This document shows, one piece after another, positions 21,967 through 62,000 of a stretch of DNA of 64,000 nucleotides. Below the pieces are notes generated by a model. That model did no database searches, was not told the DNA's origin, and worked only from the letters and a program-made list of their open reading frames with translations. Source of the stretch: Eledone cirrhosa (lineage: Eukaryota). How positions within the stretch are numbered: position 1 is the stretch's first letter; the number at the start of each line of letters is the position of its first letter. The stretch is taken from assembly GCA_964016885.1 (NCBI GenBank), contig CAXHJY010001129.1, positions 1 to 64,000 on the forward strand. Direction: 5' to 3'. Position numbers and translations under genes: made by a program.

Positions 21967-22024
21967 TATATATATATATATATACGATATTAACAAATGG
22001 AAACTATATTTATAAAACCATATC

Positions 22025-22088
22025 TATTTTATTATACATATTTCAAGGACACCATGTTAAATTATGGTATGCTTTCATCAGACAAAAT
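22025..22088 (-). ncRNA. Minimal hammerhead motif, left arm of inverted cassette
   Basis: Reverse complement of 22256-22319. Confidence 0.72.
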
Positions 22089-22254
22089 CTCCGTCTTTTT
22101 TCTTTTCTGTAACACGACGACTTATTCTTTTAAAAATAAAAATATCCAATACTAATATAAGTAAACAAACTCCACTATCCCGGAGTCTTCCAACAGTAAT
22201 GGTTGCATTTTGTAAGGATATGTCAATATTTATTTGTAAAACCGATATATATTG

Positions 22255-56000: not shown

Positions 56001-59000
56001 TTCTATTTCTCCTCTTTACCCAGGGTGGACATCTGCAAACTGCAGTGTCAGTGAAAACGACTGCAAGCATCATAACTGCATGAACTTTGCTACCTGTGTG
56101 GACAAACATAGAAAATATGTTTGTGTGTGTCTCCCAGGATATACAGGTAAGGCCTCAGCTCTTTCAGAAGATCCCACTTTAGGGTGAAAGCAGAAATTGC
56201 TTGCTCAAATAGAATTTTGTATGGGCAGCTTTCAATTGAAACAAGGAAGTACTAACGTCAAAAGGAGTTTCCTATCATTTGAAGGCTAAGATCTTTGATA
56301 ATTGCATCCTACCGTGTCTGGCCAGAATTCTCTCATCTCCCTCTGTTTAAACTAGCTGTAACTGCCCCTTCATACTTCTGTTAACCCCTTAGCATTTAAA
56401 CCTGCTGAAATTTTCTCTCCTCTTTCTGTTTAAACCAGTCGTAACTGGCCCCTCATACTTCTGTTAACCCTTTAGCATTTAAACCAGCTGGAATTTTCTC
56501 TCCTCTTTCTGTTTAAACCAGTCATAACTGGCCCCTCATACTTCTGTTAACCCTTTAACATTTAAACCAGCTGCAATTTTCTCTCCTCTTTCTGTTTAAA
56601 CCGGTCGTAACTGGCCCCTCATACTTCTGTTAACCCTTTAGCATTTAAACCAGCTGCAATTTTCTCTCCTCTTTCAGTTTAAACCAGTCGTAACTGGCCC
56701 CTTATACTTCTGTTAACCCCTTAGCATTTAAACCAGCTGGAATTTTCTCTCCTCTTTCTGTTTAAACCAGTCGTAACTGGCCCCTCATACTTCTGTTAAC
56801 CCTTTAGCATTTAAACCAGCTGGAATTTTCTCTCCTCTTTCTGTTTAAACCAGTCGTAACTGGCCCCTCATACTTCTGTTAACCCTTTAGCATTTAAACC
56901 AGCTGGAATTTTCTCTCCTCTTTCTGTTTAAACCAGTCGTAACTGGCCCCTCATACTTCTGTTAACCCTTTAGCATTTAAACCAGCTGGAATTTTCTCTC
57001 CTCTTTCTGTTTAAACCAGTCATAACTGGCCCCTCATACTTCTGTTAACCCTTTAGCATTTAAACCAGCTGGAATTTTCTCTCCTCTTTCTGTTTAAACC
57101 AGCCGTAACTGGCCCCTCAGACTTCTGTTAACCCCTTAACATTAAACCAGCTGGAATTTTCTCTCCTCTTTCTGTTTAAACCAGTCGTAACTGGCCCCTC
57201 ATACTTCTGTTAACCCCTTAGCATTTAAACCAGCTGGAATTTTCTCTCCTCTTTCTGTTTAAACCAGTTGTAACTGGCCCCTCATACTTCTGTTAACCCT
57301 TTAGCATTTAAACCAGCTGGAATTTTCTCTCCTCTTTCTGTTTAAACCAGTCGTAACTGGCCCCTCATACTTCTGTTAACCCTTTAGCATTTAAACCAGC
57401 TGGAATTTTCTCTCCTCTTTCTGTTTAAACCAGTCGTAACTGGCCCCTCATACTTCTGTTAACCCTTTAGCATTTAAACCAGCTGGAATTTTCTCTCCTC
57501 TTTCTGTTTAAACCAGTCATAACTGGCCCCTCATACTTCTGTTAACCCTTTAGCATTTAAACCAGCTGGAATTTTCTCTCCTCTTTCTGTTTAAACCAGC
57601 CGTAACTGGCCCCTCAGACTTCTGTTAACCCCTTAACATTAAACCAGCTGGAATTTTCTCTCCTCTTTCTGTTTAAACCAGTCGTAACTGCCCCCTCATA
57701 CTTCTGTTAACCCTTTAGCATTTAAACCAGCTGGAATTTTCTCTCCTCTTTCTGTTTAAACCAGTCGTAACTGGCCCCTCATACTTATGTTAACCCTTTA
57801 GCATTTAAACCAGCTGGAATTTTCTCACCTCTTTCTGTCTAAACCAGCTGTAACTGGCCTCTCATACTTATGTTAACCCCTTAGCATTTAAACCGGTTAG
57901 ATCCGGCCAGAATTCTCTCCTCTTTCTTTTTAAACCAGCTGAAACTGGCCCCTCATACTTCTGTTAACCCTTTAGCATTTAAACCAGCTGGAATTTTCTC
58001 TCCTCTTTCTGTTTAAACCAGTCATAACTGGCCCCTCATACTTCTGTTAACCCTTTAGCATTTAAACCAGCTGGAATTTTCTCTCCTCTTTCTGTTTAAA
58101 CCAGCCGTAACTGGCCCCTCAGACTTCTGTTAACCCCTTAACATTAAACCAGCTGGAATTTTCTCTCCTCTTTCTGTTTAAACCAGTCGTAACTGGCCCC
58201 TCATACTTCTGTTAACCCTTTAGCATTTAAACCAGCTGGAATTTTCTCTCCTCTTTCTGTTTAAACCAGTCGTAACTGGCCCCTCATACTTATGTTAACC
58301 CTTTAGCATTTAAACCAGCTGGAATTTTCTCACCTCTTTCTGTCTAAACCAGCTGTAACTGGCCTCTCATACTTATGTTAACCCTTTAGCATTTAAACCG
58401 GTTATATCCGGCCAGAATTCTCTCCTCTTTCTGTTTAAACCAGCTGAAACTGGCCCCTCATACTTCTGTTAACCCTTTAACATTTAAACCGGTTAGATCC
58501 AGCCAGAATTCTCTCCTCTTTCTGTTTAAACCAGCTGAAACTGGCCCCTCATACTTATGTTAACCCTTTAGCATTTAAACCGGTTAGATCCAGCCAGAAT
58601 TCTCTCACCTCTTTCTGTTTAAACCAGCTGAAACTGGCTGATCATACTTATGTTAACCCTTTAGCATTTAAACCAGCTGGAATTTTCTCTCCTCTTTCTG
58701 TTTAAACCAGCTGAAACTGGCCCCTCATACTTATGTTAACCCCTTAGCATTTAAACCGGTTATATCCGGCCAGAATTCTCTCCTCTTTCTGTTTAAACCA
58801 GCTGAAACTGGCCCCTCATACTTATGTTAACCCCTTAGCATTTAAACCGGTTATATCCGGCCAGAATTCTCTCACCTCTTTCTGTTTATACCAGCTGTAA
58901 CTGGCCCCTCATACTTATGTTAACCCCTTACCATTTAAACCGGTTATATCCGGCCAGAATTCTCTCCTCTTTCTGTTTAAACCAACTGTAACTGGCCCCT

Positions 59001-62000
59001 CATACTTATGTTAACCCCTTAGCATTTAAACCGGTTCTATCCGGCCAGAATTCTCTCCCCTTTCTCTGTTCAATATAATTTCTCCTAACCCTCAGGTCGA
59101 TTCTGTGAGAGAGATGTAAAAGAATGCCTGTCGGACCCCTGCGTCAATAATGGCACCTGCATCGATGAGGTCGGAGCATTCCATTGTAACTGCATGGAGG
59201 GATGGACAGGTGGCAGCTGTGAAACCAGCGTTGACGACTGTCAGTCGGAGCCTTGCCGCAACAACGCCACCTGTACTGACCAACACAACAGCTACCAGTG
59301 TGAATGTCTGGATGGCTGGACAGGTGACAACTGCCAGGTAAGTGAAGGGGGATGGGTCGGTGGTGTGGAGTGTGTGGGGGTGGTATTAAATTATGGTGTG
59401 CTTTCATCAGACAAAATACAATATAGATCAGTTACTGATCTATATTGTATTTTGTCTGATGAAAGCACACCATAATTTAACGTGGTGTCCTTGAAATATG
59501 TATAATGAAATAAATATGGTTTAATAAATATAGTTTCCATTTGTTAATATTGTATGTTTACTCCAAATACTTGTTGAGTGCTTTATATCAGTTATAAAAA
59601 TATTTGCTTGTTGTATCCCAACAATTTAAATAGAACTTTTGCATATATATATAAGTGTATATATATATATATATATATACATATATATATATATATGTGT
59701 GTATATATATATATGTGTATATATATATGTATATATATATATATATATGTGTATATATATATATATATGTGTATATATATATATATATATGTGTGTATAT
59801 ATATATATATATATGTGTGTATATATATATATATATATATGTGTATATATATATATTTAAAAAAAATTTTTTTTTTTTTATTTATTATTATTATTACTAT
59901 TATTACTATTATTTTTATTTTTTTTATTTTATTTTTTATTTATTTTTTTTTTTTCTTGTGCAATGGCCATACTCGATAACGAGGGGGCAGCCATCATATA
60001 TATATATATATATATGTATATATATATATATATATATATATTTTCTTTCTCTTGCCAGACTAACATTGATGACTGTGCCCTGGTTCCGTGTGAGGAGGGC
60101 GCCACCTGCGTGGACGAGGTTGCAGGGTTTCGCTGTATCTGCGCCACGGGGTACACGGGGGAGCTGTGTCAGGTGCAGATCAATGAATGCCTGGAGGGCG
60201 TCGTCGAGGGCGCCAACAACCCCTGCCAACACAACTCGACGTGCCGCGACACCGACGGCGGCTACGAATGCGAGTGCACGGCGGGCTACGAGGGGCCCGA
60301 CTGCGCCGCCGACACGGACGACTGCGCCGCGCCGCACGCCTGCCGGAACGGCGCCATCTGCCTGGACTTCGTCGCCGACTTCAAGTGCGTCTGCTTCGGC
60401 GGCTGGACGGGGCCCACCTGCGCCGAGCGCGACCTCTGCCTCGACAACGACTGCGGCGCGAACGCGACGTGCGTCGGGCGACCCCTGCAGGGGAGCTACG
60501 AGTGCGCCTGCTCCCTGGGTTGGGGCGGACCCCAGTGCGACGTGCCCATGGAGCCGTGCGTCGTGAACGCCTGCTCAAATAACGGCTCTTGCTACCAGGA
60601 GAAGGACCCTGAGGTGAACAGCCAAGGGCGCTTCACGTGCACCTGCACTGATGAGTGGACCGGACCGACCTGTGAGGCAAGTAGCATATTTTGTGGTCTG
60701 ATCTGTCACATACATACACACACACATATACATACATTTATATATATATATATATATATATATATATATATATATATATATATATATATAAATATATATA
60801 TATATATATAAATATATATAAATATATATAAATATATATAAATATATATATATATATAAACATATATATATATATATATATATATATATATATATATATA
60901 TATATATAAATATATATAAATATATATAAATATATATAAATATATATAAATACATATAAATATATATAAATATATATAAATACATATATTTATATATATT
61001 TATATATATATATTTATATATATTTATATATATTTATATATATATATATATATATATATATATTTATATATATATATATATATATATATTTATATATATA
61101 TATATATATATATATATATTTATATATATTTATATATATATATATATATATATATATATATATTTATATATATTTATATATATATATATATATATATATA
61201 TATATATATATATATATATATATATATATATATTTATATATATTTATATATATTTATATATATAAATATTTATATATATTTATATATATTTATATATATA
61301 TATACAATATTAAATAAATGGAAAACTATATTTATAAAACCATATTTATTTCATTATATATATTTCGGGGATATCATATTAACAATATGCTATGCCTTCA
61401 TCAGACAAAATACAATATAAACAGTTTTATAGATAAATATATTCGACATACCGTAATAAACATCAACTTCATATTGTATTTTGTCTGATGAAGGCATAGC
61501 ATATTGTTAATATGATATCCCCGAAATATATATAATGAAATAAATATGGTTTTATAAATATAGTTTTCCATTTATTTAATATTGTAAATATTTGTCGAGT
61601 GCTTTTATATCAGTTATAAATATTTACTAGTTGTAACCCAACAATTTTAAATATAACTTTACATGTATATATATATATATATATTTATATATATTTATAT
61701 ATATATATATATAAATATTTATATATATATATTTATATATATTTATATATATTTATATATATATATATTTATATATATATATATTTATATATATATATAT
61801 TTATATATATATATTGTTATACTTTGGGAGGGTCATGTTGCCAATAAGAAACACACGCACCAGTTGCTTTCACTTCAATTTAATTTATTATATATTTATA
61901 AATTTACAAATTTATAAATTTCTGGTTGGTTGGTTGGTTCCACAACCAGATAGTTGTTTATATATATATAGTCATAGTTCTTTCGTCACACACTCTGTGG

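Follow-up and report, generated by a model that had tools for sequence, protein, structure and literature searches.

Divergent hammerhead cassettes at the locus

We analyzed a 64,000-nucleotide (nt) stretch of the Eledone cirrhosa genome (contig CAXHJY010001129.1 of assembly GCA_964016885.1, positions 1 to 64,000, called here the window), which carries five cassettes of inverted arms bearing hammerhead ribozyme motifs, together with solo arms of the same kind. A first-pass annotation, made from the letters of the window, had described five cassettes and three solo arms, all of which were located where it had placed them. The features are as follows, site 1 and site 2 being the two recurrent outer ends of the arms that are described further below, and L numbers denoting genomic loci fetched for comparison:

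21985..22450, cassette 1 (family A): a short inverted left copy ending at site 1, head-to-head with a sense right copy that is 5'-truncated, tailed and ends at site 2; (TA)n flanks both sides of the cassette
22025..22089, minus strand, hammerhead of the cassette 1 left arm, core starting at 22081
22255..22319, plus strand, hammerhead of the cassette 1 right arm, core at 22263, predicted cut after 22311
22367..22389, plus strand, hairpin 1, a candidate start signal for reverse transcriptase (RT), at the start of the cassette 1 tail
24198..25130, cassette 2: inverted pair with both arms untailed and a palindromic centre, the left arm split by an insertion (24260-24820)
25021..25086, plus strand, hammerhead of the cassette 2 right arm, core at 25029
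54965..55985, cassette 3: left arm in pieces at 54965-55002 and 55606-55738, cores at 55679 (minus) and 55883 (plus)
55003-55605, nested insertion in the cassette 3 left arm, holding an unrelated hammerhead (55414, plus) and then a TA run
59385..59643, cassette 4 (family A): partial left arm, right hammerhead core at 59456, hairpin 1 at 59560-59582, tail to 59643
61305..61663, cassette 5: cores at 61404 (minus) and 61485 (plus), tail with an internal deletion
16560..16693, minus strand, solo arm of cassette-5 type, core at 16660 (CUGAGGA), ending at site 1
10949..11202, plus strand, family B arm, hammerhead core at 11010, hairpin 1 at 11117-11144, tail to 11199
22463..22613, minus strand, family-B-like solo arm, core at 22572, 82-84% identical to L217, untailed

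The split in the left arm of cassette 2 (at 24260) had been recognized before; in cassette 3, too, the left arm is interrupted, here by the nested insertion at 55003-55605. The extra tail that had been ascribed to right arms is likewise present, with the amendment that in cassette 5 it carries an internal deletion.

The hammerhead motifs

A strict type-I hammerhead scan of both strands of the window gave eight motifs, as against none in each of 100 shuffles that were block-wise and dinucleotide-preserving. Relaxing the scan raised the number to 12, the additional motifs being those at 61485 (plus), 61404 (minus), 16660 (minus, with a CUGAGGA core) and 55414 (plus), the last of which has a CUGAAGA core and is unrelated to the cassette hammerheads. 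A repeat search of the window was dominated by TA microsatellites. With Rfam, hammerhead models were absent among the matches listed for the window (150 of 203), and the matches listed for the window and 18 loci were only microRNA-like ones on TA repeats plus two tRNAs, with no hammerhead or hairpin family.

The type-I hammerhead is represented in all its parts, as the CUGANGA, GAAA and UH elements of the core and three covarying stems are all present. Across the fetched loci 247 hammerheads were collected, with 113 distinct stem II sequences, and 246 of the 247 have an A at the cleavage position, the pattern used for collection itself fixing much of stem III and stem I. For 24 chosen distinct variants 95.6% of cells pair, compared to 36-59% in slid controls, and both sides have changed in 10 of 22 pairs, a score reached by 0 of 500 shuffles in a control that ignores the relatedness of the variants. 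Thus, the strict matches and the covariation of the stems, which the first-pass annotation had proposed as a check, indicate that the hammerheads and the inverted cassettes are genuine.

Stem III is self-complementary in its three main forms (AUAUGUAU, AUAUAUAU and AUGCGCAU), and the retention of this palindrome fits dimer cleavage as in PMC4209133. The predicted cut falls after AUA, in agreement with the site that had been proposed earlier, and cleavage there is predicted for element transcripts, probably in dimeric form. Isolated monomers fold weakly, with z from -2.8 to +0.2 and one of six below -2. In a folding prediction the core is fully paired with the opposite arm in all five cassettes, and in inverted cassettes the hammerhead is predicted to be locked in this arm-arm duplex.

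Longer copies and their open reading frames

The cassette 1 arm used as a genome query gave 1398 first-look candidates. In 29 other loci with this arm the 3' end is common to all and the 5' ends are variable, and 20 of the 29 have an inverted partner upstream. Two copies (L031 and L032) extend for more than 1.7 kb into a broken RT open reading frame (ORF). A 295-amino acid (aa) piece of this ORF used as query gave 76,552 first-look candidates, which is not a copy number, and all of its 133 scored matches are at 91% identity or more. Among 12 long-ORF loci that were fetched, six have a direct pseudo-long terminal repeat (pLTR) ahead of the ORF, and ORFs of 742-745 aa are intact in the family-A copies L086, L087 and L089. 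Overall the full-length units read pLTR (with hammerhead), hairpin 1, hairpin 2, ATG, ORF, 3' untranslated region (UTR) and pLTR. Specifically, in L089, a full-length natural copy whose 3' pLTR has 87% identity to cassette 1, a (TA)n run is followed by an inverted 5'-truncated copy, a pLTR with hammerhead and an intact 745-aa ORF (P0001), after which come a 1.5-kb 3' UTR, a pLTR with tail and (TA)n. This arrangement agrees with that drawn in Fig. 2 of PMC8557442 for Penelope-like elements (PLEs).

Family B, whose arm at 10949..11202 has 98% identity to the pLTR of the full-length natural copy L217, has in L217 an intact 800-aa ORF that is 52% identical to family A over aa 1-580. The 41 family-B matches listed are 99-100% identical, and identity of about 99% among copies suggests recent activity. 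With blastn, no arm of family A matched one of family B; those at 11002 and 22511, which had earlier been placed in the same family as the cassettes, belong to the separate family B. Cassette-3 arms share about 1.7 kb, with the endonuclease end of an ORF, in five loci, and for the cassette-5 type one adjoining ORF piece was seen (L318).

The first-pass annotation had proposed a protein-free or retrozyme-like family, and had suggested a search for an arm adjoining a PLE ORF. Such an arm was found for family A, family B and the cassette-3 type: the arms of cassettes 1 and 4, of cassette 3 and at 11002 run on into an RT plus endonuclease ORF in longer copies. Since the arms are continuous with this ORF a protein-free family is unsupported, and the ORF linkage also contradicts the idea that the arms are terminal inverted repeats (TIRs) of a DDE transposase element. 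The recognition of minimal type-I hammerheads of PLE pLTRs, with inverted copies and several subfamilies, was right. A non-autonomous mode may apply to the cassette-2 and cassette-5 subfamilies.

The encoded protein and its clade

P0001 is a single ORF with a telomerase-like RT fold and YRDD at 352. Its AlphaFold model, made with a 60-sequence alignment, has a predicted local distance difference test (pLDDT) score of 89.6. With this model Foldseek returned telomerase RTs first and second (best E 1.6e-9), and VIA returned a diversity-generating retroelement RT first (Z 16.0) with telomerases next. By sequence P0001 has 236 relatives at E<=0.001, with 32-48% identity among the matches listed (120).

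For the Hydra clade of PLEs the published motifs are DKT in place of DKG, an N-terminal RWK, CxCX5C in the linker, and CxxC and CxH flanking conserved E and N residues (PMC8557442). P0001 has DKT at 118, with DK[TS] in 60 of 60 aligned proteins, and the three cysteine motifs as CNCRNKSNC at 604, CDLC at 702 and CRH at 729, the same being found in family B. At the RWK position most family-A copies read RWR and family B reads RWT, and RW[KR] occurs in 51 of the 60 aligned proteins. The C-terminal region carries a VY..YVG..F..R...H pattern that matches, by eye, the published Hydra rows and recurs across six local ORFs. A CCHH motif was not seen by eye in the endonuclease, and no alignment against canonical PLE endonucleases was made. 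Further features of Hydra elements, namely a hammerhead in the pLTR, insertion in (TA)n and direct as well as inverted pLTRs with a tail, are all present. The Neptune clade was a first guess that was dropped once the Hydra motifs were found. Judged from these motifs and from a by-eye comparison with the published RT alignment, on which the assignment rests, the cassettes are debris of a known retroelement clade and the families are new members of the Hydra group.

Asparagine-rich low-complexity inserts occur at aa 480-515 of the L089 ORF and at about aa 575-655 of the L217 ORF, at positions that differ between the families, and are reminiscent of the inserts reported for rotifer Penelopes (PMC3846280).

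Two fixed outer ends and a duplicated hairpin

The outer ends of the arms cluster at two points. Among 108 family-A arm ends, 48 lie at site 1, 49 at site 2, 6 read through into the ORF and 5 are elsewhere, the genome query having contained the tail, which inflates the site-2 count. Site 1 is about 56 nt and site 2 about 145 nt after the predicted hammerhead cut, and the ATG follows that cut by about 190-220 nt. All six read-through copies have a similar stretch of about 45 nt after each site, the two stretches being 91-92 nt apart; each starts with TATA and holds RCTCC..GTYGAGYGCTT (0 of 500 shuffles each). This corresponds to a bulged hairpin of about 25 nt, RCUC-Y..R-UN-GAGYRC, present in two copies between the ribozyme and the start codon, and the outer ends lie 0-4 nt 5' of the hairpin, usually at a short TA-rich stretch. 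In family B, too, each of the two copies fetched carries these motifs at both of its sites, and the duplication is visible by eye in four published Hydra consensi.

We also looked out of sample, in a metagenomic set of 78 loci in 62 clusters, 39 of which have at least 100 nt before the matched ORF start. The strict hairpin motif is found in 34 of these 39 Hydra-like families, where shuffles predict 0.4 and the opposite strand gives 4. Over all 78 loci the motif is counted 105 times in sense and 5 times in antisense orientation. An anchored search with the fifth pair free, in which pairs were counted by the anchored pattern and the variable loops left unaligned, gave 64 motifs in 36 of the 39 families, with two copies at a spacing of 55-83 nt in 28 families. 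The fifth pair is C-G in 41 motifs, U-A in 20 and another combination in 3 (Fisher 1.6e-16), and U is the first base of the 2-nt bulge in all 64. TAT or ATA stands within 8 nt before 45 of the 64 motifs, and the motif lies 35-135 nt ahead of the ATG. In regards to the ends themselves, 40 metagenomic rows allowed a downstream copy to be set against its read-through form. Of these, 22 are uninformative, as 14 are cut off by a contig end and 8 are read-through tandems. Among the 18 kept, 13 ends (from 11 clusters) lie 0-4 nt ahead of a motif, the first copy in six cases and the second in seven.

Neither the Rfam matches listed nor the literature searched contained the hairpin; Repbase, subscription journals, figure images and bioRxiv supplements lay outside that search and may describe it. 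The words 'hairpin' and 'stem-loop' are absent from the text of PMC8557442 and from its supplement text, and word look-up found no description of the hairpin in the passages of PMC3846280 or in the text supplements of PMC11167929. The duplicated hairpin is apparently a cis-signal new to the literature, and the fixed outer ends likely mark reverse-transcription start sites that are set by it.

Pairing of the arms and their inner ends

With queries lacking an intact tail, 41 cassettes of three subfamilies were classed as 36 one-tailed, 5 untailed and 0 two-tailed, an excess of one-tailed cassettes with a p of 5e-7 versus independent arms. Most cassettes have one arm ending at each of the two sites. 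A one-sided tail has already been described qualitatively (PMC8557442, PMC3846280). The cassettes are arranged head-to-head, with junction letters that vary from copy to copy and with many palindromic junctions. Inner ends taken from blastn, which are approximate and come from best-scoring subsets only, fall within positions -90 to -61, counted from the hammerhead core, for 33 of 46, 25 of 50 and 35 of 53 arms in three families, and this cluster probably represents the RNA 5' end. Three families (L004, L217 and L192) share the word ACTATCC at 50-90 nt upstream of the core; in two of them it lies near the inner-end cluster, and it is possibly an initiator element.

Origin of the cassettes

We consider it probable that the cassettes are 5'-truncated, head-to-head insertions of protein-coding Hydra-type PLEs in (TA)n, with outer ends that mark reverse-transcription starts at the duplicated hairpin. 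In the mechanism that we propose, the element protein, probably as a dimer, would bind the hairpins and cut (TA)n DNA, and the nicked (TA)n end would anneal to the UA-rich stretch before each hairpin. Both target ends would then prime, one per hairpin, with copying running upstream from both sites, and the two complementary DNAs would join head-to-head at their inner ends to give the inverted pair. The 'tail' would be the spacing between the hairpins (91-92 nt in family A), and in short cassettes the copying would have run off the mRNA leader at the RNA 5' end. If copying began at the hairpins in the leader of an ordinary transcript, only short copies would result, which fits the size of the cassettes. 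Long copies with a 3' tail also exist (for example L085, L089, L092, L093 and L218), and these need a hairpin 2 located 3' of the ORF, a part missing from a single insertion. It could come from tandem transcripts, as in the eight read-through tandems seen, or from hammerhead-made circles.

There is a parallel in the Poseidon PLE, where RT starts in vitro at a pair of internal RNA sites delimiting the tail, and where both strands of AT-rich DNA are cut, the protein is predicted to be dimeric and hammerhead cleavage is not needed in vitro (PMC11167929). A broader proposal is that a clade-wide duplicated RNA hairpin, each copy preceded by a short UA-rich stretch for primer alignment, docks a telomerase-like RT dimer, that a single insertion is primed from both hairpins at the two ends of a (TA)n break, and that short cassettes copy the mRNA leader. 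For full-length tailed copies, hammerhead cutting with circularisation, or else tandem transcripts, would provide the downstream hairpin 2, and the ribozyme would thereby have a role. We put this forward tentatively, as somewhat less than an even prospect; if true, it would explain the tail, the inversion and the choice of target together.

Several observations weigh against the origin that we favor. No ORF link was found for the cassette-2 subfamily among the fetched copies. Pfam gave no significant match to the ORF pieces or P0001, with neither RT nor GIY-YIG reported, and a PDB sequence search with alignment gave no match to a solved structure. P0001 itself reads RSR at the RWK position. 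A model of the endonuclease alone has a pLDDT of 49.5 and a best VIA Z of 3.5, and Foldseek placed I-TevI first only at E 0.64, with none at E<=0.001; given the low confidence of this model the GIY-YIG fold is neither supported nor contradicted. The tail in the genome query skews the count at site 2, five of the 18 informative ends in the metagenomes do not fall at a motif, and of the 40 rows 22 carry no information. In Poseidon the RT starts are not homologous to the cut DNA and cleavage is unneeded, unlike the TA-rich microhomology observed here, and antisense self-priming has been offered elsewhere as the cause of palindromic junctions (PMC3846280).

Antisense self-priming, proposed for rotifer Penelopes in the same paper, is part of the most serious alternative, in which the cassettes are Hydra PLE stubs but the hairpin works at the DNA level or in a different step, such as endonuclease recognition or resolution, promoter function or translation. 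The many palindromic junctions speak for it, as do the D. virilis tail, needed for endonuclease recognition as recounted in PMC11167929, the ascription of the tail to endonuclease resolution in PMC8557442, and the position of the motif, which stands 35-135 nt upstream of the ATG in a region that would also hold promoter or translation signals. However, the ends lie 0-4 nt from the motif at both copies in many families, the hairpin past each end is not copied into that arm, and the in vitro RT starts of the Poseidon element bound its tail (PMC11167929), so that we regard this alternative as unlikely.

A second alternative, the one nearest to the view of the first-pass annotation, is that some cassettes, chiefly those of the cassette-2 subfamily, are a non-autonomous palindromic unit that the RT of a related element copies as one piece. 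The cassette-2 query gave 1411 first-look candidates, with centres of 160-175 nt in 17 of 18 distinct rows, no ORF was found adjoining cassette-2 copies, and non-autonomous PLE derivatives have been reported (PMC8557442; bioRxiv 10.64898/2026.07.22.740005). However, that query spanned the centre and thereby selected for centre-bearing copies, junction letters differ among copies, the same inner-end cluster is found in families with intact ORFs and the perfect arm-arm duplex is predicted to bury the hammerhead, which together make a unit of this kind improbable. Finally, miniature inverted-repeat transposable elements (MITEs) of a DDE transposon whose TIRs happen to contain hammerhead-like words would also be short, non-coding and inverted in a TA context, but the arms are unequal with a one-sided tail, their inner ends and junctions vary, the arm forms a direct repeat around an RT ORF instead of partnering a transposase, and the hammerhead stems covary, so that this very improbable explanation was rejected.

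Other features of the window

Further features of the window are:

10074..10410, minus strand, Hydra-type PLE ORF fragment, aa 126-240 of P0001 at 40-60% identity
7923..8084, minus strand, second small Hydra-type RT ORF fragment, aa 261-314 of P0001 at 56%
56024-56148, 59190-59338 and 60060-60677, plus strand, exons of a gene with multiple epidermal growth factor (EGF) repeats

Cassette 4 sits in an intron of the EGF-repeat gene and starts about 45 nt after one exon, and cassette 3 ends about 40 nt before another. With the hammerhead core predicted to be buried in the arm-arm duplex, cassettes in the introns of this gene would probably spare the host pre-mRNA from cutting, and such long intronic duplexes could be substrates for adenosine-to-inosine editing. 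The right end of the insertion in cassette 3 (55003-55605) recurs at about 61775-61900 and at 62102.

Another head-to-head cassette type, frequent in other loci, is seen at 15890-16078 and 22815-22870, truncated within a hammerhead-like motif (GAAAC, a palindromic stem and GUC). It carries the same bulged hairpin at 15941-15968 (minus strand) and is probably a further Hydra family, overlooked in the first-pass annotation. At 15690-15835 there are two PLE-like 3' stubs in a row that end in (TA)n, one with a hairpin at 15775-15796; hammerhead-bearing forms that match these stubs were found in L018 and L154. A separate near-perfect palindrome of about 300 nt (16780-17085), in which no hammerhead was detected, adjoins the solo arm at 16560. 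Lastly, 14439-15238 and 28019-28818 form an 800-nt inverted pair, 100% identical and 12.8 kb apart, which is either a recent duplication or an assembly artefact and which we take to be a fragment of a long interspersed nuclear element of RTE-like look; a piece of this repeat also lies inside cassette 2, at about 24310-24545.

Comparison with known systems

The elements most resemble the Hydra clade (Craig et al. 2021, PMC8557442, which includes Hydra-1_Obim) in having a single ORF with RT and a C-terminal endonuclease region, the RW(K/R), DKT, CxCX5C, CxxC and CxH motifs, and RT blocks that match the published alignment by eye. They also share a hammerhead near the 3' end, (TA)n targets and inverted 5'-truncated copies, as listed for Penelope-13_HM. 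Identity with Hydra-1_Obim of Octopus bimaculoides was rejected, as that element has another hammerhead and 2507 bp and four family-A words are absent from the supplement; the differing hammerhead and words indicate new families of a known clade. The units here are 3.9-4.0 kb with a long 3' UTR, compared to 'generally <3 kb' for the clade, and their tail is 88-92 nt, compared to 30-40 bp given for PLEs (PMC8557442). They further differ from published Hydra families in a long stem II with a C.C mismatch and in a very high copy number, the 76,552 candidates mentioned above being a first look and not a copy count. Penelope-like expansions in octopus have been reported (PMC13282606, PMC8967140), with Hydra or ribozymes not named in these sources under the terms searched.

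Poseidon PAc of Anolis (Frangieh et al. 2024, PMC11167929) likewise has a pLTR hammerhead upstream of the ORF, AT-rich targets, two internal RT starts that bound the tail and a predicted dimer. In contrast, it belongs to another clade, its ORF starts within the hammerhead, and its RT starts lie inside an AC-rich stem-loop without target homology, whereas in the present elements the ends lie immediately 5' of a conserved hairpin, at either of its two copies, and TA-rich microhomology is frequent, with 45 of 64 flanks showing it. How PLE reverse transcription is primed, how inverted repeats with a one-sided tail arise and what the hammerhead does are open questions in the PLE field (PMC8557442, PMC11167929). 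A covarying hairpin of about 25 nt offers exact mutations for testing PLE priming, for which intact natural ORFs exist, and the motif is a precise boundary marker for annotating Hydra elements. As PLE RTs are sister to telomerase, a start signal composed of a hairpin plus alignment would bear on the origin of telomerase-type priming.

The minimal PLE hammerheads (Cervera and de la Pena 2014, PMC4209133) share the type-I core, palindromic stem III and long stem II with those described here, in which stem I is longer, at 7-8 bp, and the stem III palindrome measures 8 nt; dimers of the published motifs cleaved only weakly in vitro. Metazoan non-LTR retrozymes (PMC7229834; bioRxiv 10.64898/2026.07.22.740005) likewise carry type-I hammerheads, in repeats that are short, non-coding and related to PLE pLTRs. 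However, retrozymes are tandem and head-to-tail, whereas the cassettes are head-to-head pairs with variable inner ends that are continuous with coding elements and have an ORF in cis in long copies; a retrozyme identity was rejected, and the cassettes should be annotated as PLE, not as MITE or retrozyme. Opposite-strand hammerhead pairs 100-700 bp apart had been ascribed to truncated PLEs (PMC4209133), and with this publication in 2014 the object of the first-pass annotation was known in kind. Opposite-strand hammerhead pairs, inverted pLTRs and one-sided tails are thus published PLE anatomy, and what is apparently new here is the presence of two fixed outer ends, each just 5' of a duplicated bulged hairpin.

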